A stretch of 63,577 nt of DNA, the filler included, from Neolecta irregularis DAH-3 (taxonomy: Eukaryota): assembly GCA_001929475.1 (NCBI GenBank). It is 8 parts of 8 records of this genome, joined end to end, with 100 filler letters (N's around TTAATTAATTAA, not from the genome) between each part and the next. Parts side by side here need not be neighbours in the genome. Positions count along the whole stretch, not along the records: positions 54,740 to 61,121 come from LXFE01002692.1; 7 more parts are not named here. One strand, 5' to 3'. The notes below the pieces were generated by a model. That model did not search any database. It saw only the letters and a list, made by a program, of their open reading frames with translations, and was not told the origin of the DNA. The position numbers were made by a program, and so were the translations under genes. Below are positions 3,553 through 62,493 of the stretch, in pieces (positions within the stretch are counted from its first letter, which is position 1; the number at the start of each line of letters is the position of its first letter).

Positions 3553-3625
3553 TTGCGACAACTGGTTTCGATCCAGCGACCTTCGGGTTATGAGCCCGAC
3601 GACTTAACCACTTGTCCATGTCGCA
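3553..3625 (-). tRNA. Initiator tRNA-Met(CAU)
   Basis: TGCGACA/TGTCGCA acceptor; TCGGG-CTCATAA-CCCGA anticodon arm with three G:C pairs; T-loop ATCGAAA (A54/A60), diagnostic of eukaryotic initiators. Confidence 0.9.
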
Positions 3626-3906: not shown

Positions 3907-5974
3907 CTAAATAACATCAACATTAATAATATCGACTGGGTCCTCTGGCCGGTCCAGTTTGTCCGTTTTCAATCTCTCGATCCTGGAGATAACATCCAAT
4001 CCACCAGTCGCTCTTCCAAAGATTGTATGCTTCCCATCCAACCAATTCTATCGAATCAGTTCTAATCTTACTAGAAAACGAAATACCGTCTCTGCTGTAG
4101 TAATGAAGAATTGACTTCCATTTGTGCTTGGACCTGCATTGGCCATAGAGACTGTGAATGGGCGATCATGTTTCAGATCAGAGAATTCATCTTTAAACCC
4201 TCTTCCCCATATCGATTCTCCCCCTGTTCCATCACCCAGTGGGTCACCGCCCTATTCGATCAACATTTATAACAGAGTGTAGGGTACCTGAATCATAAAT
4301 TTCCGAATTACACGATGAAAAATCGTTCGATCGTAATATCCCCGCCTTGCAAGAGTAACAAAATTTTCGACGGCTAGAGGTGCTTTATCAGGATACAATC
4401 GAATTTTGATATCTCCAAAAGTTGTATGAATTATTGCCTCGGTGCCCATCTCCTTTTGAATTTCTTTCTTATTCTCGATATTTAAAATGGTTGGTTTTTC
4501 GTTAAACACATCTCGATCAGAAAGCTTGATATCACTATTTTTCAGATCTCATTTATAAGAGAGATATACTGTTTCGTAAACAAATAGAAACGATTCTTTT
4601 TCCAACCTGTAGCGAAAATGACGGGATCTCGATCTGCCTCAGCTTCAAGAAGAGGATTGTCACTAGCGGCCATTTGCATAGAGACATTTTTCTTGCCTGT
4701 TGGGGCACCTTGGTAAACTGCGATTCGATCGAATCGTATGGAGTCGTCTTTTCCCAAAAGTAGGCGGCATCGATCGGTAAACGTATTGATGACTATTTAT
4801 TACCAAGATCAGAAGACGATCGAATACCTTTGATTCCATATAATGTAGAATAAATGAGGAAATACCCCGATTCATCAAAATAAATGTCACCAGTACATCC
4901 CGATTTCTGCATCTCTCGTTCAACAGCCAGTCGTTTTCCAAATTCAATGTCGTCTAGATGGTAAATTTTGGCCCCATCCGAATGCAAAGTTTCCAGCTGC
5001 GAAAGAGATTCCAGATAGGTCTTTTTGATTTTACCAGTTGAAAAGTCCCATATTTGTAGAACCCGATCAGGAAGGGAGAATGTAGCGAATATGTCATTCT
5101 TGGGAGATATTCGAAGAACTGTAGGTATTGACTTTGACTTTCTGAATTGATATAGATCGGTCGAGGATTTTAGATCCCATAGTCCCTGGGGCTTTGGGCC
5201 TTCGGGAGTCCAGTATTCGATCATCCCGTCGATGTCGACTGATATCGTTGTATTGTATTTAGGATTGTATGACATTAAGTGAACTGGCTTTCGATGAATA
5301 CTGACTGTACTAATAACATGACCACCCGCCATTGCATCGTAGATGTTGATATTACAATCTTGCTCTGACGATCTAAGGTATCAACAATCAGTCTTCCGGG
5401 GTCCGTACACTGCGATTAACTTGCCTTGGGTGTCCTGATTATACACCCAACATGCAGCTTTTGGACGCAAGCCCAATTCGAAAAGGTTGATCATGTCAAT
5501 TCGTATTAGCTAGATTTTCCTTGGAGAGGTACCAAAATTCACTACATCAAATATCCGGACTCCGCCTTCTTCGCCGATACAGACGACAAATACCCCATCA
5601 TAACTAACCTTGACGTCTCGAAAGGGGCCCATGAAAACTCGAAAAACTTTGACGAAATCAATCCCCGTGGCTGTCTTTTTCCAGAATTTAAGACGTCCAT
5701 CAATTGAACACGTAATTATGAAATCTGTAGGAGTAGCAATTATATGCGAGAGGTTCTCTTTATGCATAAATGATGTTGTATAGCGGGGCGTCGAGGGGAG
5801 ATTGCCCAGATATGTCGATTCTCCGGCAAGATGTTTTCGTTTTCTCGATGGAAGAGGCAAATTTGGGCCGACATCATCTTCCGATGAACTGCTCCCATGT
5901 TCTGCTTATTGTAAGAATTACTAGCGATAAAGGAGGTTTCTACCGGCCGGTCGTTTCTTTGGCGACGCAGGCAT
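3907..5974 (-). CDS. cyp15: WD40-repeat cyclophilin (Cyp15/PPWD1)
   Basis: [27 protein letters not shown], then a cyclophilin domain ([26 protein letters not shown]). Multi-exon; one junction (5497-5532) appears to be GT-TG. Confidence 0.93.
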
Positions 5975-6057: not shown

Positions 6058-6286
6058 TCAAGTTCAAATATGCATGGATTTATCTATTCATACTACAAAC
6101 TATGTCTTGGTAATTTCTTTGTAGTATGTGATAAATTGGACAGGGTTGGAAATACTTTTACGCTGANNNNNNNNNNATCAAGTTCGAATATGCATGGATT
6201 TATCTATTCATACTACAAATTATGTCTTGGTAATTTCTTTGTAGTATGTGATAAATTGGACAGGGTTGGAAATACTTTTACGCTGA
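6058..6286. repeat. ~109-bp near-perfect duplication either side of a 10-N gap (unmerged contig overlap)
   Basis: 6058-6166 repeats at 6178-6286 across the Ns. Confidence 0.85.
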
Positions 6287-10991: not shown

Positions 10992-11091
10992 NNNNNNNNN
11001 NNNNNNNNNNNNNNNNNNNNNNNNNNNNNNNNNNNTTAATTAATTAANNNNNNNNNNNNNNNNNNNNNNNNNNNNNNNNNNNNNNNNNNNN
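10992..11091. other. Artificial 100-nt scaffold linker with TTAATTAATTAA core; same linker at 21983-22082, 35106-35205, 42379-42478, 54640-54739, 61122-61221, 62361-62460
   Basis: Identical N-run/six-frame-stop cassette occurs seven times. Confidence 0.97.
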
Positions 11092-25937: not shown

Positions 25938-26019
25938 GGTCGAGTAGCGCAATGGTAGCGTATTGCTTTCCGGTTTCGGAATGTGGCAAAGGTTGCGGGT
26001 TCAAGTCCCGTCTTGATCG
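25938..26019 (+). tRNA. tRNA-Arg(CCG) with 10-nt intron (25974-25983)
   Basis: GGTCGAG/CTTGATC acceptor; TTGCT-TT-CCG anticodon arm; intron CGGAA pairs with the anticodon loop; GGTTCAAGTCC B-box; T-runs downstream. Confidence 0.92.
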
Positions 26020-29544: not shown

Positions 29545-31308
29545 TCAAGCAGTTGGAAAATCCAGTTGTACACGTCTGAATTCAAGGCCGTCTGCTCTAC
29601 GTTTGAGAATATCCTTTCTTATAGCAATACTTTTCTTCACACCAAATGAATCGATGAATAATTCTTGGACTTGTTCGAGTGTGAACCCAGCTGTTTCCGG
29701 GTAAAGAACAACGACAAAGATCCAGCCTAGAAGACATATACCTGCGTATAAAGCAAATGCGCCGGAAGGGGTGATGGCTTTCATTAATGTTAAGAAAGTA
29801 AAAGAGATGACTAAATTCGCCGACCAATTTGTCGCCGTAGCCATTCCCGCGCCGAGTCCACGGACTTTCATCGAAAACAGTTCAGATTGTTGCCAGGGCA
29901 CGTTTCCGATTCCTGTAGCGTAAAACGCGACAAAAAGTAATTGGCCCAAGAGTACGATTTTCGGCCATTTACCCTCTGTAGCTACGACATGTCCGTCTTT
30001 GTCAAGTGGGATATGAATGAATGCACCAGCTGCCACAGCCAATCCAAATGCCATTCCCCATATCGTCGCGATTAATATTGTTCGACGACCAACACGGTCA
30101 ATCAGAAATAGGGCTAGTAAAGTGAAGAGAAAATTGATTACGGCAATCGATGTACCCACCGCTACTGGATTTTGAAATCCAACGGCTGCGAAAAGGGTTC
30201 CCGAGTAATACATCAACGTGTTGAAACCACAGAGTCTGCAATGTTAATAGGAAAATAAGAGGGACATACTGCTGAATCGCTTGCAATCCACAAGCAATGA
30301 TCAATGCGCGACGATTAGCTCCGACCAACAACAGATCTTTTAAAATTATGAAAAATCCTCGATCTCGAACAATTTTGTCAACCTCGTAGACATGACGATG
30401 AATCAATTCAAGCTTATTATCAACCTCTTGTTCCGTTGCATTTGGATAAATTTTATGCAAGATAGGTCTAGCAGTATTGCGTTTCCCGCATTTAACTAGA
30501 AATCGCGGTGTTTCTGGAAGAAATGTCATCATCAGGAGTTGAATCATGCTAGGCACGGCGCCCAAGCCAATCATGTACCTCCATCCATGCGCAACATGGT
30601 AAAATATTGCATCGATACCGTAAGCGATAACTTGACCGCCCGTAATACACAAGACATTCGTAATAACTAACCGTCCTCTGATTCTCGACGGCGCAAGTTC
30701 AGAAATATATAAAGGAATCGCAAAAGCAGCGGCACCCACTCCAAATCCAATTACCAATCTTCCACAAACCATTAACGCAAAAGATTTAGAAATAGCTTGA
30801 AGAATTGCGCCGAATGTAAATAAGATATTTGCAATTGCTAGGGTGGTTACAAAACTTTGTAAAAGACCAAAGGATATTACCAATGATTGGTTTTCGGCCT
30901 ACTTTGTTGATAAGAGTACCAGCGATAAGGGCCCCAACGAGAGCGCCGATCGCTGTTGCAGAGGTAATAAGTTCTTTATCCCTATCTGAAAGCACCCGGC
31001 CAAGGTCTTGTTTGATAACCACAAGAGCCCCCGAAATAACACCAGTATCATAACCGAATAAGAATCCTCCAATCTGGACGTGAGTACAACACGGGAAAAG
31101 AAAGTACAGCAGCAGCAAAACTTAGGATCCAGACAAAATATCCCATTTCCGTCTCTTCGATTGCGTCCAGGGATATTTGTTCGGTTTGGGGATCATTTAG
31201 TTTCAGACTAGACGACGACTGTTTGGACATGTGCGGCTTTATAAATTGGGTTTCAGAAAGATCATAGTCTTGGGTCGCAAGCGGCTTGTAGGAAAGAGGG
31301 GACGACAT
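29545..31308 (-). CDS. ITR1: myo-inositol transporter (MFS)
   Basis: [68 protein letters not shown]. Confidence 0.9.
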
Positions 31309-35105: not shown

Positions 35106-35492
35106 NNNNNNNNNNNNNNNNNNNNNNNNNNNNNNNNNNNNNNNNNNNNTTAATTAATTAANNNNNNNNNNNNNNNNNNNNNNNNNNNNNNNNNNNNNNN
35201 NNNNNAAGAGCTTAGAAAGCAAATACTTCCTAAGCAAAACTCAGCAACCCCTAGATGCACAATATCTTAAATTCTATGTCAAAGAAAGTTCAAACTTTCT
35301 GCAAATTGTCAATGGTATTTATGATCTGCGTAGCTGGAGAATAGAGAATCATCTATAGAGCTGCAAAAATGGGATTGTAGATTTCTCCAAATATTTCAAA
35401 ACAAATTGACATACCAGGCAGGTGTCGTGACAAATAAACATCCAGTCACGCCTGATAACCTCAGCGGAGTTTCACTATTCTCCATTTCAGTC

Positions 35493-42378: not shown

Positions 42379-42485
42379 NNNNNNNNNNNNNNNNNNNNNN
42401 NNNNNNNNNNNNNNNNNNNNNNTTAATTAATTAANNNNNNNNNNNNNNNNNNNNNNNNNNNNNNNNNNNNNNNNNNNNCCTCCCA

Positions 42486-44610: not shown

Positions 44611-47600
44611 CTAGATAACACTCATAAATTTATAGAAATTCACGACATTGGCACCTGGCGTTCCAAGCCCATAAGTATAAATAAACCTTGAAAGTTAGAA
44701 TCAGACCCAGCTGAGAAATTTACCTGCTAGCAACATACGCTGCAAACATACTTCGTTGATAACTCTCAGGAAGTCGCTGTATAACAGTCTCAACACCAAC
44801 TCTCTCAATCAATGTCTTTGGCAACAATTTCGTGAAGACTGAATACCGAGCCTTTTTATCGGCAAGCAGATCAGTCTTTTCTAACTCAGCACGAAGTTCT
44901 ACAATGGCAGTTGATAAATCATCGCTGAGTAACGTTCGAGATTTTTTAGTTGCAATGTGCGCTTTTTCGATTGCTGCGAATTCTGATGCTGCATTTGCGA
45001 TGATAATATTTTTGATGTCTTCAACATAAGATTCGTAATAATCTGTCGCAGCGTGGTTTTGGAAACACATCAGAGAATCGTATTCTGCATCATCTAAGGC
45101 AAGACCAGCAAGAACTTCAAGGGATGAACTTGTTACGCCACCCTTAAACATTAATACGATTCCTGGGAGATGAATATGCCTTATTTGCACTGGCGTCTTT
45201 AAAGAGGACAACCCTGTGCTTCTCAAGGAACAGTCGGGCTTCCTGAGTGATAAAAAGATTTGCTCCTTCAACGATATACTTGAAGTGAGGCTTTCCATCT
45301 GCTCCAAAAAGTTTCCGGACATTGCTCATATTAATGCTCTCAGGCCGACCACCACATGGAACAAAGATATCTGAGGTAACTCGAAGATGGAAGGCATCTC
45401 TGAATGATACGCCATCCGGAATTATTTCACCAGCTATTTATCAGTCAGAAGATAACAACAACTTTACAGGGAAGTTTGATGTCAACGTCTTCAACCATGA
45501 TCTTGTAGCCTCCTTTTCCAAGCTTCTCTTTATCGAAATGAGAAACCATGCTTCGAGCTTTTGCAAGCCGTACGAGCTCTGCTCGATCAAGTCCATTTGG
45601 ATCATACACAACACCAGATCCATCAACCACACCAATCGTCTTATCCTTGCTCAACAAGATTTCGTCTGCACATTTAGCATCCACTATTGAATTGCAAAAT
45701 CTCACTCGATCCAAGATCCCCATCCGGACCACCCGTTTGAACTTTCGTTACCTGAGTCTCATCAAGTCCGAATTGTTTATAGATTCCCAAGATATATTGA
45801 CGAATCGAAAGACTAGTCATTCCATAGACGTCATGAGGAATTCCACCTAGGGTTGATGCCGATTTCCCGGTGGTGAATGAATTCCACCAAGGCGCACCTC
45901 GATATCGTGCGTGCATGGCTGCCCAATCCATGAATTCTGCAGTGTTCTCATCTGGGCCGAGAAAAATTATTTCAGGTTTCTTGTAAAGGTCGATAATAGG
46001 CTAATCGATTAGGAAAGACAAGGTCTGTGTTGATACATCTTTAATCCCGGCAGATTCACCTCTAAGAAGAAGATCAAGCATGACGTCGCAGTATTTTTGG
46101 AAAGCAATAAAAGCTTTGTCTTGTTCTTCGGCGTCAAGTAGGATAATCCCTTTCGAACCACCCTCAGGGATGTCCTTATTTTTTCGTTGTTGAGTAGCAG
46201 CTAAACTGGTTGATTAGAACTGGTTTAGCAAAGGATTAAACGCGTAGTTTTCATCAAAACAGTTACGCAGATTGATAGAATATGCTTCACGATTGCGACT
46301 CTTAACGACCCGAACACCACCCCGTGCAACATCCTTGAGACGTAAATGGAATCCTCTAAACTCCGCTCCGACAAACATAAACATTCCAAATAGTTTCTGG
46401 GGATATTCAACCTCGGGGAGAAAGGCGGGGTCCAATCGGAATCCGAATGCGACTTTTGTGGGTTGGTAAAAATTGGTCTTGAGGATATGTTTGTTAAAGA
46501 CCAGGAAAGACTCGAGAACAAGAAATTCATCGCTATTTTTGGCAACTCGCTTCAGATGAATATGAAGTTCTTGGTCTGTAAGAGGATGCGACGTTTGGAG
46601 ACGTTGGTAGGAGAGAGTGGGTCCGAGTTCTCCGCTTCGAGGGTCTACGTAATGCGTCATAGCAAAGTTAACATAGAGAAGTTTAATCAGCTCAGGATAT
46701 CGCATGATGATTTCAAGGATGTACTCTCGGGTGAAAGTGTCCTGACGAAGACGCTTCTTGATGTTATTGAGGACTTCTTGATGACCCGGGTCATCTGAAT
46801 TTAGTATTCGAACAAGACTGGTATACTCATTTCCTAAACGATTCAAGAAATGCTGAGCGAATATCCATCCGATATGTGCGTATACAGTCTCCTGCAAACT
46901 CAGTTGCCGCTTCTGAAAAAGAGGTTGCAGTGGTGAATTGGGATGACAGAACATAAGTGATGCATCCTTCATGACCTGATAGATGCTTTCCTCGATAGGT
47001 ATAGTAGTCCGTGAAGCATGTGCGGGGCTAAGACAAATAAGGACGATCGTTACGCCATTGCTGAACTGTTCGACGTATTTTCGGCTACTCGTGAGTTCCC
47101 AGGCGTGGTAAGTATCACTGAGCTTTGAAAAGAAATTCTTTGTGGTCTTATGTCGGTATGCAACGACAAGTCGTTTCTCTCGGGAACCCTCAACGTCGAA
47201 AACATCAATGACTGGGCCTGATCGTGTCAAGACAACGTTCATCAATCTTTGATAAATATCGAGGATGTTTTGGCTTGCCTTTTTGAGAAATGTCTTGTCA
47301 GAGACAGATTTGATGTCGACTTGCTCGAGGTTCTCGGGCACATCAGACTGGACAAAATCGCACTTCTTCACAAAATAGCATCGAAGTTGATTCTCGGTAT
47401 TGTCCGAAACGGGCCCTGGTGAGCAGTAAGTTTCGAGCCTGTAGGCAAGAGACTTGGAGGAGTTGTTGAGATACTTCTCATCAATCCTTAAGCAATCAAT
47501 ACGAGCAGAGTATGTTTCTTCCATACCTCTTCTCATACTGAGGACCGCCGACGACGGAGACTCCTGGCCTTGCTGTCAATATGTAGACTGCAGACTCATC

Positions 47601-48058
47601 AATCTCGCGATTCAGTTTAATGTCGAAACTTTTGGAGTTGCGAGAAAAAGCCGAAACCTTTGCACTGTACAAAGCGAGAATATGGTTTGCAATGGTTTCG
47701 ACACTGCTTGTTTGAAAATACATGTCTTTGTGTGAGAATTTCGACATGACAGTCAGACATACCGTCAATACCAAGGTTGGAATAGAACCAAGCGACTTCT
47801 GAAATGACCAAAGACTGTGGGATAAAGCCCATGTTTAAAACGATATCGGTGACCTCTGTCATTTGCTCTGCTTTACCCTGGCTGGTGAATTGATTGTGTC
47901 GCGAGAAAACTCACCTCGTAGACATTGGTCTCGTATGGTTTTTCGGCTTTCATATGATGGTTATAGTCGGCCATTCCGGGAACATGGGCATTTGGGGTGC
48001 TTGTTCCGCTAGTACGTGTGGGAAATGCAATGGAGGAGGAGCCGTTGGGAACGGTCAT
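44611..48058 (-). CDS. GDH2: NAD-specific glutamate dehydrogenase (large type)
   Basis: SSRKYVEQFSNG, LKTNFYQPTKVA, FRGFHLR.KDVARGG, KNKDIPEGGSKG, FLGPDENTA, QTGGPDGDLGSNEI, PCGGRPESI, IVEGANLF. Confidence 0.96.
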
Positions 48059-54639: not shown

Positions 54640-54739
54640 NNNNNNNNNNNNNNNNNNNNNNNNNNNNNNNNNNNNNNNNNNNNTTAATTAATTAANNNNN
54701 NNNNNNNNNNNNNNNNNNNNNNNNNNNNNNNNNNNNNNN

Positions 54740-55019
54740 GACCTCGCATTTTTAAGTTTTTATGAGCTACTATTTCTCCAACTGTTCCATAACTCGAGAA
54801 GAGAGCTTGCAGGGATTCTTTAAGTGCTACCGTCAGTTGGTGCATATTAATAATGGTACCCAAGATCTTTACGCGTTCATTGATATTCCGAACATAAACG
54901 GTATTTGATGGAGTAGTTGGAGGTGGAGCAGAGGGGTGTTTCTGCACTTTGGGCCAAGATCCAGAATTGGGCCCTGTGTATTGCGGCTGCTGAAAACTCT
55001 GCGACAACGGTGCGTTCAT
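54740..55019 (-). CDS. U1A/U2B''-family snRNP RRM protein, 3' end in the gap
   Basis: PSNTVYVRNINERVK..LKESLQALFSSYG.V.EIVAHKNLKMRG. Confidence 0.88.
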
Positions 55020-55152
55020 GGAGTTTGTGCGTGAGGCAAGTGACCTCTATGATCTCTAGTCACGTGATGATGGAGTAGTACTACAGAGTCTTTTCGTACC
55101 AGAAAGTAGAGAATTGTGATATCTGTGGTCAAGGGAAAATCTATGAATTATT

Positions 55153-55646
55153 CAGTCTATCAGACCGTCCAGACCGACTTGACCCTTTGGTCTGGTCCGT
55201 CTGGGCCAAAATTATTACCGGTCTGGTCTGGTCTACTTAGACGGTCTATTTGGTCCAGTCGGTTAGGAACGAAGACGACGCTGCGCCAGGCTGCCACCGA
55301 AGAGTACAGCCGCGGGTTTGCAGGCAGCGGGCGGTGAGCAGCCAGCGTCCACAGCAGCAGCACGCCCAGCTCCGCACCCGCAATAGCTGCGGCCGCACAC
55401 ACCACCGCCCGCCACTGCCGGTGCGCTGCCGCTGCTCCCAACTCCGCCGCGTGCAGCAGGTGCGGCCATGCAAGCCCTGACAGCGCTTACACAAAGAACC
55501 CCAGCGGCAAGCAGTGCACATGTTAGGCCCGGCCTGGCCCATGGGCAGGTCCATGAAAAAGCCCATGGGCCAGGCCGGACCCTCAGAAAAGTCCACGGGC
55601 CAGGCTTTTTATAAAGCCCATGGGCTTCGGCTCATTGCCAACACTG
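55153..55646. mobile_element. Composite non-autonomous element: AGACC/GGTCT-rich left arm, GC-rich internal fragment, CCCATGGG-rich right arm ending CCAACACTG
   Basis: Right end is the reverse complement of the CAGTGTTGG terminus seen at 35041; no TSD found. Confidence 0.55.
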
Positions 55647-56112
55647 CATGATGATGTATTTGTACTCAATTGATACTCAATCCAATCAATACCTGGGATC
55701 TTAAGACCAGGGCTGTTTGGTCTAGCATAGAAGGTTGGAGGACGTAAAGGTGACCGCCTCTGGTCAAATTATACATCATTGTTCTATGTTGCCGTTTATC
55801 ACATTTTCGACAAGATTGACCCCCTTAGCCGTCGCTAGATAATTTTGTCCTCACTCACATTGGTATTGATGTGCCCGCAATGAGTATTCACACTTTCAAT
55901 GATTGGTGTAAAGTGACTGTTACTGCTTGCAGTTTCCCACTACAAGAAAGAGATACTTGTTTAGGTCCTTTGTACCTGCTGATCTTTAAACTTTGCCAAC
56001 TGTTTAAAAGAAATTGATGGTTATCATCAAGATGTTCAGATTCTTCAGTGGATCAAATGGTGGTGCACTTTAGATAGTACTGTTTCAATAGACATTTCTA
56101 GGGTTCTTATCT

Positions 56113-58447
56113 CTACTCCAATACAACCCTTCCACCAGCCCAAACGAAGCCATAGTTTCTTCGATACCAATTGCAAAAGCCATTTCGTCTCAATGTTGGG
56201 TGTGTTGCCCAGCTTTGCCCGACAACTATATTATGTTTCCCATCAAAAAAGTCAGAGGTATATCCTAGGTAAACATCATCATCTTGAAACAGGGCATGTT
56301 TTTCGAGGCAACTCGACGTCCAATCCCAAAGGCCAGCTTTGGGGAGCCAATAGTGAAATGAAGGAAATGGACTACATGATGGTTGGGATGGAGGTGGACA
56401 ATGGATAGCATTGCCGTTTGAATGCCCATTTATCCCACACTCTCGAATAAGTTCCCAATAAAGCCGCATTTCTCCTTCATTGGGTAATCGTCCTCCGACT
56501 TCTTTTGCAAATCCATCAAGCTCGTCAAAACTTGCTGCAACTGGCCAGTTTCCCGCAATTGAAAGATCAATTGGCCCATAAAATGTCTTCACTTGCCGGT
56601 CATTGGTCCAAGATTTTGGTAGAGGAAGGAGTGGGTGTCTAAAGAGATAGTCGGAATATTGAGAATTTGTTATTTGTGACGATAAACGGAAAGTGGAAAC
56701 AGTGAAACTTCGAGAGGGACTTTCGTTGTCCCACCCATATTTCTCTGATTCATTATCTTGACCTACTCGGAATGATCGCCCAGGAATATCCTTCCACTCA
56801 AGCCCGACAGGTGCTTCAGGACGCATAACAGGCATTGGAAACCCGGGGGGCGAAATGGTTTCATTGCTTTGAACAAGCATGTACAAAAGACTGGTAGTAA
56901 GTGAATCCTAGTTTCAAAGTGATTTACGTTTCAAGATGCATAGCAGTATGTTCAAATCCTAACCAAGTCGCTCTCTTCAGGTTTTCGCTCATGTCACCGC
57001 TGAGAACACTTTTTAGGCGATCCCGGACAACATACATATACAAGAGAATCTCCTGTTTTGATGGCCATGATTTCGGTACAGGTGGGTGTGGGTGACAGGA
57101 CAGGGTTTCTTCATCAGGATCAATTCCTCGCTCAAATATCTTGGAAAAATAAGCATTGGTCGACGGTTCTGATTGAACTCGTGATAGATGAATGTCGATA
57201 AATGCCGGGATGTGACCTTCCTGTTAATCGAGACGGGATCTCTGGATTTACCAAGATAGAAAATACATTCATGACGAGAATCAATTGGTTTCTTGTCAAG
57301 CAATGAATCGGGAATCATTCCTTGGGTGATGAGATCCCACGCATGCCACAAAATATCCCATTCTGCCATTGTAGGAATTTTTGTAGTTGGCTGGGGAAAT
57401 TCAAAAGGTGCAACATATGTGAGGTGAAGATCAATAATTAGCTCAGGAAATGGAAAGCTGATATACCATACATCTCTTGAGAATCTGCCCATCGCCCAAG
57501 AGGGTGCAGTTTGGCTTTTACCCACAAATCGTTTGTTTCTTCTTCGTTCCACTTCCAACTCTCCTCACAAAGAAACTTGGTCCCTGGGTTGACAAAGATA
57601 CCATCGACAAGGTTCATTTTTCGTTTACTAACGTACCATGCTTGATGAGCACCAAGTTCCTCGTCGTATCGTCCTTCATATTCCCAATCATCTCGGTTAA
57701 AAACAGGCTTCCCAAATACTCGATTTGCATGATCGAGACCGTTCAGTATGAATTCTCTAGTAATATGCTCAGAGTCATTATATGCCTTTTGAACTTTATC
57801 CAAGGGATTTCGACGATCAATTCCAATAAGTAGCTGATCGCCTGGATTCAATTTCTTTTGAAATTGACCGAGAAACTGGACTGCCTCATTGCGAGACAAG
57901 TTCCCAATGGATGAACCAAGCCATAATACAACTTTTGGGGTTTGAATGGGAAGCGATGCAAGAAATGCAAGACCGTCATTGTAGGTTCCGTGAAGACCTC
58001 CCGTAGTTACATGAGCATACTTTGGTAGGGCTGAGAGCGATCTTTCGAGTTCGGAGAGGGACAAATCGAGTGCGCAGTAATGAACATCTTTCTTTGCTTC
58101 GTCAAGGGCGGATAGAATGAGATTGGTCTTGCGCAATACGCTACAAGATTTAATAAAGCAAACAAGCACTGGTGGGTGTCACACCCACTGCCTAACTCAA
58201 TGATAATACTTTTATCTTTGACAAAAGTCACAATTTCCTTGGCATGATTCTTCAAAACGTCGAGCTCGGCTTCAGTCAAGTAGTATTCCTTCAAGTGGGT
58301 AATTTTCTCAAACAGTTGAAGACCCTTGTCGTTGTACAAAAGGATAGTTGGAAACTCCCCTTGGCGAAGGTATTCTAAAAGCGAATCCGGCGAATGGCCA
58401 TTGTGCAGATCCGGATGTAAGCGTATATCGACTATAGATGGCACCAT
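56113..58447 (-). CDS. EGT1: Ergothioneine biosynthesis protein 1 (histidine methyltransferase plus sulfoxide synthase)
   Basis: PTILLYNDKGLQLFEKIT..EYYLT, IELGSG, WLGSSIGN, AYNDSE.ITREFILNGL, IFYLGHIP, FEHTAMHLETLLYM, YGWDNE, DFFDGKHN; one junction appears to be GT-TG. Confidence 0.95.
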
Positions 58448-58877
58448 AGTGTTTGACTGAGATGCAATTTTACGGTGGTGGCTATATAAAGACAACTGCG
58501 GGGAGCCCCACTGCGTCACTGAGGCGTTACGTAATGAAACTCAAATAGAATACAAGGCGGACACCAAAGAATGTCTTAGTATCGGTTATCTTCATTATTT
58601 GAAGAAAGCAAAAAGCGCCGGAGACGGGTACCAAGTATTTGTTGATTGAAGTTGTCGAAGGAAATGTCGGTGGAGCGTGACTTGACTCTTAAACTCTGAT
58701 CGGATCTTTAGCCTCTGTTCAGACCTCGAATCCGATCCTCAGTCTCCCTCCATATGAAGGAATCCAGAAGTGACGATTATTTTCCATCCTGCAGTTCCGA
58801 TCCGTGACTAGATTCATTTCTTCAGTCAGACAGTTTCAAGGTTGATGAAAAAATAATGATGTTTCAGGAGCCAAGTA

Positions 58878-59077
58878 CAGTGTGGGCAACCACCCCACTA
58901 GTGACACCCGGTGGGCCACCGGATGGATAGTAATCCACCCACCCATCCATCGGAGAAATGTGGCTGACCACCCGACGGGTGCCACCTGGTCCTGGTGCTG
59001 CACCAGGTGGCTTAGTTATCCACCCACCCACCCACCAAAGTGTATGGGTGGGGTTGGTCTGGTGGTTGGCCACACTA
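58878..59077. mobile_element. 200-bp MITE, hAT-like
   Basis: 17-bp imperfect TIR CAGTGTGGGCAACCACC / GGTGGTTGGCCACACTA; degenerate 8-bp TSD GCCAAGTA / TCCGAGTA; internal CCACC repeats. Confidence 0.85.
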
Positions 59078-59367
59078 TCCGAGTAGGTCCCTTAAAACAG
59101 GGGTTTGTTTCTTTAAGAGATTGACCTCTATAAAGGGGTTCCTTGAAATTCATCCCGTTTATGCTGTTTGTAAACTAAAATCCACATAAAATTGAGTCTC
59201 CACAATAGATGTATTCACAAGTTCAAGGTGAAGAATCATTGCATTGATCGAAACGACTCCAGTCTATTGATATAGCGATCATCGATGAATCTCATTCCAC
59301 GTTAGGAATTGTTGGGGATCCCAACATCTTTTACATAAAGCAAAGCTACAGGTTTGTTTGCAGAGAT

Positions 59368-60300
59368 CTATAAAAGATGGATTGACAGAAATAATGATAC
59401 GGCATAGTCAATGATAATAGGACGCATTGTAGATGAGGAATGAGTCTCTTGCGAACATAAATTATGTAGCAGGTTAAGAATTCGTCTTTTAAGTTGGACA
59501 ATGGAACAGAGCACAAGTTCCGTTTCGACCTTTTTGATCAGTTGTTCCATCTACGAGCCCACGTCAATTCAAGTATACTTGGTAGGTTTTCCTGTGTCAA
59601 TTGTCAGAAGAGAAGAATATCAAGATGAAAAGACTCTGGTCCAAGTAATGCATTTCCAATTCCAATATCTGTCGATTTGATTGTTTTCATCTCTTGAACT
59701 AGCTTCTGAAAATATACCTATTAGATCTAGCAACTAGGATTTTCATTCGGCATGAAGTTGGAAAACAGAGAGTCTTCATGCCCATAGTTAATGCACAATA
59801 TTCCTTACGTCTGACAATTGAAAAGCTTTAGGGTGCACTCACCAGTAATATCATGATATTTGGGTCTGTCGCGCAGAATCCGTCCCAAGGGATAAAGTCA
59901 GGAAAAGAATGGAGATGGAGTGAATGTTGATTGTTGTGAATTGGAGGGTAGTAGCGGGTAGCATTGTTAAAGTTGTTCTTTTGATCTTTGATATATTCTT
60001 ATGTGAAGAAAGAGGGGCGGGGGACTGATCTATATACTTGCAGAACACAACATACTTCCTTCCAGTACACACTGTAGGTAAAAAGGAAAAGCTAAGCTAA
60101 GCCCCATTTACATACGGTGACTCGTCAACACGCCCCATACTCCCGGTACGAAGATACTCTTGAGAAGACAGAGGACCGACGTCGGAAGCAGAATCGTGCC
60201 AAAATAGGTAGGATAGTGAATTGTGAATGAGATTGGTGATAGTAAAAATCGTGGAGAAAGAGGGGAGGAAGGAGCTTGAATAAGGAGACCTGATGGCGTC
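59368..60300 (-). pseudogene. Multi-exon unknown gene or relic next to a transposon
   Basis: Several intron-like GT..AG segments separate short coding-like frames; no continuous model could be built. Confidence 0.3.
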
Positions 60301-60319
60301 GTGTTAGGCAAAAATCCTG

Positions 60320-61121
60320 ATAACGGGCGAGGAGGGCGGCTCAGGGTTAGGAGGGCGGGCAGTAACAGGTGAGAGGACAGGGGCGATAACGGACCAGGAG
60401 GGGGAGTAGTAATGGGCGAGGTGGACGGGGCGATAGCAGGCAAGGAGGGCAGGTGATAACAGGCAATAACAGGCCAGAGGGCGGGCAGTAACAAGCGAGG
60501 AGGGCAGGCGATAACGGGCGAGAATGGCGGGGCAGTAATGGGCAGGAGAGTGAGAGGAAGCAAGTATGGGAGTAAGAGGAAGCAAGCAGAGCCTTTTCCA
60601 TGTCACTTTGATAAACGCGATAAATCTTACACAATCGAATATCACGTGATACGGCCCATTAGGCCAACCAGGATTTTTTCCAAAGTCCTCCATGGACTTT
60701 TAATGGGCTGGATTAAGTCCATGGTCCATCCACAACACTGTGGAAGGATTAGTATGCCAGTCGCCTGCTGGAAAAATATGATCTGTGCACCCGCCGGAGC
60801 CTCTCTGGCGGGTGGGGCCTCTCAGGTCTGATTTTTATGCCTCCCGCCTTCACCAAGAGATCCAACCGCCCATCTGGAGAATGCTCTGGCAGGCTGTTAG
60901 GTTGTATGGGGTTTGGTAGTTTCCTGCATGTGATGTTTCTTCAAAGGTCCCCTTTTGATTTTCTTGTATTGAATTTGTTGGCAGACAATTAGTTTTGCCT
61001 TTAAATTTTGATCCCGATAGTGTTTGTTTCGTTTGAATGCGTTGGTTGGTTGTTCAACTATGAATTGATTTGCAATTTGCTCAAAGTTACACTCGCGAGA
61101 TTTGTCATGGATCACGTGATA
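60320..61121 (-). mobile_element. Composite hAT-like non-autonomous element with internal ~20-bp minisatellite
   Basis: 60900-61121 and 60320-60670 are homologous (reverse complement) to 62690-62900 and 62940-63300; internal CAGTGTTG end at 60740. Confidence 0.8.
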
Positions 61122-61221
61122 NNNNNNNNNNNNNNNNNNNNNNNNNNNNNNNNNNNNNNNNNNNNTTAATTAATTAANNNNNNNNNNNNNNNNNNNNNNN
61201 NNNNNNNNNNNNNNNNNNNNN

Positions 61222-62298: not shown

Positions 62299-62493
62299 GT
62301 ATCATTTCAAGATGCTTAGAATGATGGATTAGGTATCATTTCAAGATGCTTAGAATGATGNNNNNNNNNNNNNNNNNNNNNNNNNNNNNNNNNNNNNNNN
62401 NNNNTTAATTAATTAANNNNNNNNNNNNNNNNNNNNNNNNNNNNNNNNNNNNNNNNNNNNCATTACGATGACTCATATCTTTAATATTGTCAT

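Follow-up and report, generated by a model that had tools for sequence, protein, structure and literature searches.

Background

Introns that begin with GT and end in TG, in place of the AG that is the rule, are already known. In human genes, GT..TG introns described in 2007 are handled by the major spliceosome, keep the G at position -1 and are altered only at -2, and their TG-spliced form is protein-coding; in the available part of that report TG is an alternative acceptor beside a nearby AG and never the sole one (PMC2374985). A transcript-based annotation of the fungus Ganoderma lingzhi, in the excerpt at hand, counts 22 GT-TG introns (0.024%) against 89,855 GT-AG introns (PMC11590231). 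For budding yeast, the accessible sections of Roy et al. (2023, PMC10711555) state that Prp18 imposes a minimum distance of 10 nt between the branch and the 3' splice site, that cells without Prp18 use branch-proximal sites (down to 7 nt) as well as non-YAG sites, and that Prp18 and Slu7 are dispensable where this distance is short. AUG, ACG, UGG and UUG are the most efficient of these 'BG' sites in the absence of Prp18, their use being tied to pairing with the first intron base (PMC10711555). Here we describe a GT..TG intron in EGT1, the gene for ergothioneine biosynthesis protein 1, of the fungus Neolecta irregularis DAH-3 (GenBank assembly GCA_001929475.1). The gene occupies positions 56113..58447 on the minus strand of the window, by which we mean the whole stretch of 63,577 nucleotides, filler included, that was analysed.

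With a probability of about 0.88, positions 57466..57432 (intron 2 of EGT1) are a genuine intron of the major spliceosome whose 3' splice site is UUG and not YAG, and this site is the sole acceptor yielding an intact enzyme. Intron 2 is a real and rare exception to the AG rule. It shares with the human introns the major-type build, the G kept at -1 and the protein-coding outcome of TG splicing, but whereas TG accompanies a nearby AG in the human cases covered by the available text, it is the sole productive site in Neolecta (PMC2374985). Ganoderma lingzhi has the same fungal class of GT-TG introns; according to the excerpt at hand it differs in its phylum and in its larger introns (PMC11590231). 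The likeness to Saccharomyces cerevisiae without Prp18 extends to the trinucleotide UUG and to the very short gap between branch and acceptor (6 nt in Neolecta, down to 7 nt in the mutant), and docking would in both depend on pairing of the last with the first intron G. The yeast sites, however, are cryptic and used at a low level in a mutant, whereas the Neolecta site is natural and belongs to a conserved gene of a wild fungus.

RNA was sequenced for the Neolecta genome paper and 99.4% of the genes are given 'RNAseq' support there; the available main text contains 0 uses of 'intron', 'splic', 'RNA-seq' and 'transcriptom' (PMC5309816). Among the titles listed by a literature search on Neolecta introns and the Neolecta genome, none deals with splice sites in this genus.

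EGT1 and the sequence of its second intron

Modelled on the window sequence, the gene comprises five exons and encodes 727 amino acids (aa). Its N-terminal part matches PF10017 of Pfam (Methyltransf_33, histidine-specific S-adenosylmethionine methyltransferase) with E = 1.9e-17 on exon 1 and 4.7e-57 on exon 2, the latter covering profile positions 73-296 of 304, and its C-terminal part matches PF03781 (FGE-sulfatase, EgtB-like; E = 3.5e-15 on exon 5). For DinB_2 (PF12867), a domain carried by many Egt1 homologues, the Pfam search with the short exon pieces gave no match here. The protein record for Neolecta Egt1, too, names only PF10017 and PF03781, and the intervening region aligns with homologues. 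A search with the exon 2 protein returned 56 longer proteins. The best of these, a public model of 726 aa (P0001), matches 80% of the query with 100% identity and is, according to one source, Egt1 of Neolecta irregularis DAH-3; the other matches are fungal Egt1-type proteins with 28-52% identity. The complete model is collinear with 47 fungal homologues in the alignment. Judged by its sequence the gene is EGT1, encoding a methyltransferase followed by a part that is FGE-sulfatase (EgtB-like) and putatively DinB-like, and the two Pfam domains together with the collinearity bear out the initial annotation of the window, which had named this gene.

Exon 2 ends with ...GAG ATG TAT G at 57467, the final G being the first base of an Asp codon that follows a conserved Tyr. 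The next 35 nt, 57466..57432 on the minus strand, read GTATATCAGCTTTCCATTTCCTGAGCTAATTATTG and constitute a phase 1 intron, the ends of which appear as CA..AC on the plus strand. Splicing 57467 to 57431 gives E-M-Y-D-L-H-L (EMY, D, LHL), exon 3 starting with AT CTT CAC CTC (D-L-H-L). Of the features expected in a U2-type intron, a usable GU 5' splice site is present in the donor GTATAT (57466-57461), and so is a branch-point-like motif, CTAAT at 57437..57441, whose predicted branch A at 57438 lies 6 nt from the last intron base. The AG end is missing: the terminal dinucleotide at 57432..57433 is TG, and the intron closes with TTG both in the window and in the probably genomic sequencing run X1 described below. 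Donor, branch motif and TTG end on the minus strand are exactly as the initial annotation had described them.

The AGs closest to this TG lie 10 nt upstream, in CTGAG at 57442..57443 and 5' of the predicted branch A, and 41 nt downstream, in CCCAG at 57391..57392, which is the first AG 3' of the branch motif. Both are out of frame with both nearby GT donors. It had been claimed that such pairings lead to a stop or a frameshift, and this applies to all four combinations of the donors at 57471 and 57466 with the AGs whose G is at 57442 or 57391; use of the downstream AG would moreover delete DLHLTYVAPFEFP. Alternatives that stay in frame need GC donors and consist of a 17-nt GCTTTC..GAG piece or of longer pieces whose removal costs conserved residues. 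Because the frame is closed for both nearby AGs whichever GT donor is used, TG is the sole productive acceptor of intron 2, and the AGs at -10 and +41 nt do not form a TG-AG tandem of the human type with it.

A transcript-like contig spliced at the TG

Two public runs contain the EGT1 stretch. Their contigs were aligned to positions 55900-58700, to which the read evidence is confined. The first run (X1) holds 1.00 of the sampled words and is probably genomic. It covers EGT1 with a single unbroken contig (word depth 428, 0 differing letters) in which none of the four introns is skipped and the TTG, including base 57433, is present. As far as this re-assembly goes, the TTG acceptor is not an assembly slip.

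The second run (X2) stems from the same study under a different organism label, comprises 12 million letters in total and contains a fraction of 0.88 of the words sampled. EGT1 is crossed with 0 differing letters by one contig (3152 nt, word depth 62.9), which omits exactly 58141-58184, 57432-57466, 57217-57251 (with the cut shifted by +2) and 56891-56927. These are precisely the four introns demanded by the EGT1 reading frame, namely intron 1 (44 nt, GTGTGA...TAG), intron 2, intron 3 (35 nt, GTAAAT...TTAACAGGAAG) and intron 4 (37 nt, GTAAAT...CAG), all on the minus strand. On the same strand, exon 1 (58185..58447, with the ATG at 58447) and exon 4 (56928..57216) are supported by the contig and the gene model, exon 2 (57467..58140) is one unbroken piece of the contig, exon 3 (57252..57431) is supported by contig, model and homologue alignment, and exon 5 (56113..56890, stop codon at 56115-56113) by the gene model.

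At intron 2 the contig joins 57467 to 57431. The position of this cut can slide by up to 2 nt, which gives GT..TG, GG..TT or TG..AT, and only GT..TG has a normal donor. Since X2 removes four introns exactly while X1 removes none, we infer that X2 is complementary DNA (cDNA). Its word share of 0.88 is by our own estimate about what would be expected after loss of 151 nt of introns and of the words spanning the junctions. Even if an intron-free genomic copy were the source of X2, this copy would still descend from an mRNA spliced at the GT-TG junction. The claim that EGT1 requires a GT-TG intron at 57432..57466, with EMYDLHL at the junction, is upheld by this cDNA-like contig and by the homologues considered in the next section.

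The X2 contig also extends 253 nt 5' of the EGT1 start codon within 58448-58700 and a further 421 letters past 58700, which suggests that the 5' leader is long or that another transcript overlaps. Further upstream, CCACCC/GGTGGG repeats abound at 58880-59080.

Homologues across the junction and the public protein model

We aligned the GT-TG model with the 47 fungal homologues (650-950 aa) and with the public model. The junction residues Y-D-L-H-L sit in a conserved block, and 0 of the 47 homologues carry extra residues directly behind the Tyr. The Tyr column is aromatic in 45 and the His column is His in 36 of them; the pattern [YF]x[LVIMF]H[LMFVI] fits 29/47. In the closest relatives the junction region reads DLYDLHLLHVPPF (P0002) and GTYDLHLLHVPPF (P0006), compared to EMYDLHLTYVAPF in Neolecta EGT1.

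The public model P0001 reads ...NLVDG ELEVERRRNKRFVGKSQTAPSWAMGRFSRDVWYISFPFPELII DLHL... in this region. Compared with the DNA, this implies a 38-nt GT-AG intron at 57601-57564 of the minus strand followed by translation in frame 2 through intron 2, so that 43 residues are wrong. The X2 contig is continuous over 57467-58140 and has therefore not removed the intron 57564..57601. Within residues 268-312 the public reading matches the majority residue of the homologues at 3 of 45 positions, compared to 17/45 for the GT-TG model. With its intron retained in X2 and 3/45 matches, the public GT-AG model of EGT1 was rejected.

An old intron site in fungal EGT1

With a profile of 14 fungal Egt1 proteins, 80 fungal EGT1 loci (L001-L080) were collected from metagenome contigs, and the presence of the intron was scored by tblastn with P0002, in which YDLHL begins at residue 320. 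The alignment is broken at this site in 42 loci and runs through it in one piece, without intron, in 34; four loci are unclear. In all 42 broken loci the Tyr codon is immediately followed by a phase 1 intron, and the residues x-[LVIMFY]-[HY] come next. The intron is plainly visible in the raw locus sequences, e.g. as GACTATG/GTAAGT...CAG/GTCTTCAT (slashes mark the junctions). Among the 42 loci there are 35 distinct intron sequences of 32-359 nt, ending in CAG (21), TAG (10), AAG (3) and TCG (1).

The metagenome introns thus share position and phase behind the conserved Tyr codon as well as the GT donor with intron 2 of Neolecta, and some are only 32 nt long, too. They differ from it at the acceptor, 34 of the 35 ending in AG and one, in locus L062, in TCG. 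Since 34/35 end in AG, the TTG of this old intron is derived. Intron 2 is the local copy of a widespread, presumably ancient phase 1 intron whose base at -2 has changed from A to U.

In L062, an unrelated metagenome fungus, the same EGT1 intron (55 nt) seems to end in TCG and reads GTACGT...CTGACCATCTCTTTTCG/GTCTTCAC. The next AG there follows after 19 nt and is not in frame; the TCG is seen in DNA only and may be a sequencing error.

Other introns of the window and their branch-to-acceptor spacing

Pfam was run on 450 of the 465 stop-to-stop open reading frames (ORFs) of at least 55 aa; the 15 left out overlap EGT1, the exons of which were scanned separately. Outside EGT1, 18 exon pairs with consecutive Pfam profile positions were found, and for 17 of them a GT-AG solution of 24-99 nt exists near the expected place. 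The remaining pair, in a second sugar transporter, has a 43-nt GT-AG intron located by eye at 30838-30880.

In the gene for PMT, a protein O-mannosyltransferase, two GT-AG solutions conflict with the homologues. Of 63 PMT homologues 50 have the motif, and all 50 read DIGxxY...VPY(V/I)xMR without insertion, mostly with DIGKDY. Solely a 34-nt GC-AG intron at 10460-10427 (minus strand), GCACGG...CTCACCCGCAG, gives the corresponding PMT reading, GYDGGFDFKDIGKDYLAPRVPYV. The public PMT model (P0057) is out of frame in the part upstream and lacks the N-terminal PMT region.

We tallied 24 introns in the window, four being those skipped by X2 and 20 being chosen by frames, motifs and the continuity of Pfam matches or homologues. 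Twenty-two are GT-AG, one is GC-AG (PMT) and one is GT-TG (EGT1 intron 2). The window was selected for the latter, so that 1 in 24 is biased upward and no rate can be derived from it. The introns are 32-44 nt long (median 36). By script, a YTNAY match was found in 20/24; in 15/19, the PMT intron aside, it lies 6-9 nt from the 3' end. The distance is 6 in EGT1 intron 2 and 7, counted by eye, in the PMT intron.

In EGT1 intron 3, which is supported by X2, a CAG at 57221-57223 lies 3 nt past the TTAAC branch motif and is bypassed, the AAG at 7 nt being used instead. This points to a minimum distance between branch and acceptor. AAG acceptors occur in 3 of the 24 introns (47726-47762, 47487-47526 and 57217-57251), the last being supported by X2 and the other two predicted.

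A scan of the window for tiny frame-restoring introns between ORF flanks of at least 60 codons gave 475 candidates for AG compared to 425-961 for other dinucleotides, i.e. no signal. The same scan with motif filters (AG 30 vs 6-30) and with tighter filters (AG 48 vs 12-48) did not separate AG from the background either. Because they yield no signal over background, these scans are uninformative on further TG introns. Codon-usage scoring of the ORFs of the window was too weak to mark coding frames.

The window has a G+C content of 43.9% and is made up of individual contigs with spacers (44 N, TTAATTAATTAA and 44 N) between them, located at 10992-11091, 21983-22082, 35106-35205, 42379-42478, 54640-54739, 61122-61221 and 62361-62460; a gap of 10 N lies at 6167-6176. 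EGT1 is on the contig 54740-61121, and genes on either side of a spacer need not adjoin in the genome. At 4051-5905 (minus) lies a gene in which WD40 repeats precede a cyclophilin-type peptidyl-prolyl isomerase domain, a layout which we take to be that of a spliceosome-associated cyclophilin (PPWD1/Cyp9-like). Two tRNA genes, at 3553-3625 (minus) and 25938-26019 (plus), were the only Rfam matches in the window at the gathering score.

Strength of the evidence and alternative explanations

Several points weigh against regarding intron 2 as a genuine GT-TG intron. X2 is recorded as 'DNA?', its record does not state RNA and no library is on record; in fact none of the public runs matching the EGT1 stretch is recorded as RNA. 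The junction is seen in a single contig from one study, and contigs are blind to splicing efficiency and to minor isoforms. X1 is possibly the source of the assembly and so cannot confirm base 57433 independently. The branch site of intron 2 is a prediction from its motif, and 20 of the 24 introns used for the spacing argument were derived from continuity, frames and motifs, not from RNA. Finally, the scan of the 80 loci imposed the expected phase and residue pattern and favoured AG among the candidates that fitted, and its counts are in this sense fitted to the site.

In spliceosome structures the G at -1 pairs with the G at +1 and the A at -2 contacts the branch A. In intron 2 the acceptor is most probably set mainly by its distance from the branch: after branching at about 57438, the spliceosome would dock whatever sits about 6-7 nt downstream of the branch and ends in G. 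The intron-terminal G, which pairs with the first intron G, would be retained, and a U at -2 would be tolerated because no AG competes within reach. A choice by distance and terminal G is suggested because the spacing between branch and acceptor is mostly 6-9 nt in this window. A far wider version of this idea, in which the fungus picks its 3' splice sites mainly by a ruler of 6-9 nt from the branch with a relaxed -2 position and would be the natural counterpart of yeast without Prp18, is tentative, and we consider it unlikely.

Similarly doubtful is the explanation, advanced for UG in the initial annotation, that Neolecta habitually uses UG and other non-AG acceptors as a result of a relaxed specificity at -2, e.g. 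after loss or change of Prp18, Slu7 or the small subunit of U2AF. The very short spacing between branch and acceptor and the AAG acceptors among the 24 introns would fit such a habit, as would the phenotype of the yeast prp18 deletion, which in the accessible sections of that work resembles the EGT1 site (PMC10711555). The public models of EGT1 and PMT both mishandle the two introns of the window that are not GT-AG, as would be expected if an annotation restricted to GT-AG introns hid them. On the other hand, 23 of the 24 introns end in AG, and the one that does not is the intron for which the window was chosen.

Somewhat less probable still is that the TG acceptor is real but weak, so that intron 2 is often retained and acts as a throttle, as the initial annotation had also considered, or provides a second product. 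A message retaining the intron would encode a methyltransferase-only protein of 321 aa ending in ...EMYGISAFHFLS. It suits this explanation that intron 2 falls where the methyltransferase domain ends (Pfam profile position 296 of 304), the 321-aa ORF keeping the domain whole. When Prp18 is normal, yeast generally uses non-AG sites inefficiently according to the accessible sections of one study (PMC10711555), and a role as bottleneck is proposed for the human TG sites in the available part of another (PMC2374985). The sole X2 contig on EGT1, however, is spliced and unbroken over all four junctions at a depth of 62.9; this is a weak counterargument, as contigs drop rare variants.

That the skip is an artefact of template switching or contig misassembly, with EGT1 being a pseudogene or the public model being correct, is very improbable. 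There is one supporting contig, and a 2-nt repeat (TG) occurs at both ends of the skipped stretch, but for template switching by reverse transcriptase the repeats must be longer, and its products are minor ones. With the skip, the reading frame is open again and a conserved motif reappears, at an intron position common to 42 of 80 other fungal loci, and the same contig removes three canonical introns exactly; on these grounds the template-switch artefact was rejected. The public model fares no better, its intron at 57564-57601 being kept in X2 and its reading agreeing with the homologues at 3/45 positions.

U12-type introns, removed by the minor spliceosome and tolerant of varied terminal dinucleotides, have the 5' splice site RTATCCTT and the branch site TCCTTRAY 10-15 nt from the 3' end. 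In intron 2, TTCCTGAGC with an A 11 nt from the 3' end is loosely like TTCCTTRAY (two mismatches), but the 5' end GTATATCAG departs from RTATCCTT after GTAT. Together with the tiny major-type build shared by the three neighbouring EGT1 introns, and with a pan-eukaryotic survey that, in the part available, describes Dikarya as lacking minor introns and finds no convincing ones in Ascomycota (PMC10639083), this mismatch led us to reject a U12-type identity, whose probability is close to nil.

Conclusions

A single intron is not proof of a new splicing rule. EGT1 of Neolecta does provide a natural case, accompanied by a transcript-like contig, in which an intron of a conserved metabolic gene has UG as its sole productive 3' splice site. 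With its length of 35 nt and its gap of 6 nt, intron 2 is a test case for whether a 3' splice site can be specified by branch distance and a terminal G alone. For Neolecta, the public models of Egt1 and Pmt1 are in error at the introns that are not GT-AG, and comparative or structural work based on them inherits out-of-frame segments. If the fungus does select its acceptors by a ruler from the branch, then in a number of genes an intron would normally end at a non-AG acceptor (UG, perhaps CG) and at no other site, and such sites would have been overlooked if the annotation modelled GT-AG introns only, as the handling of EGT1 and PMT suggests.

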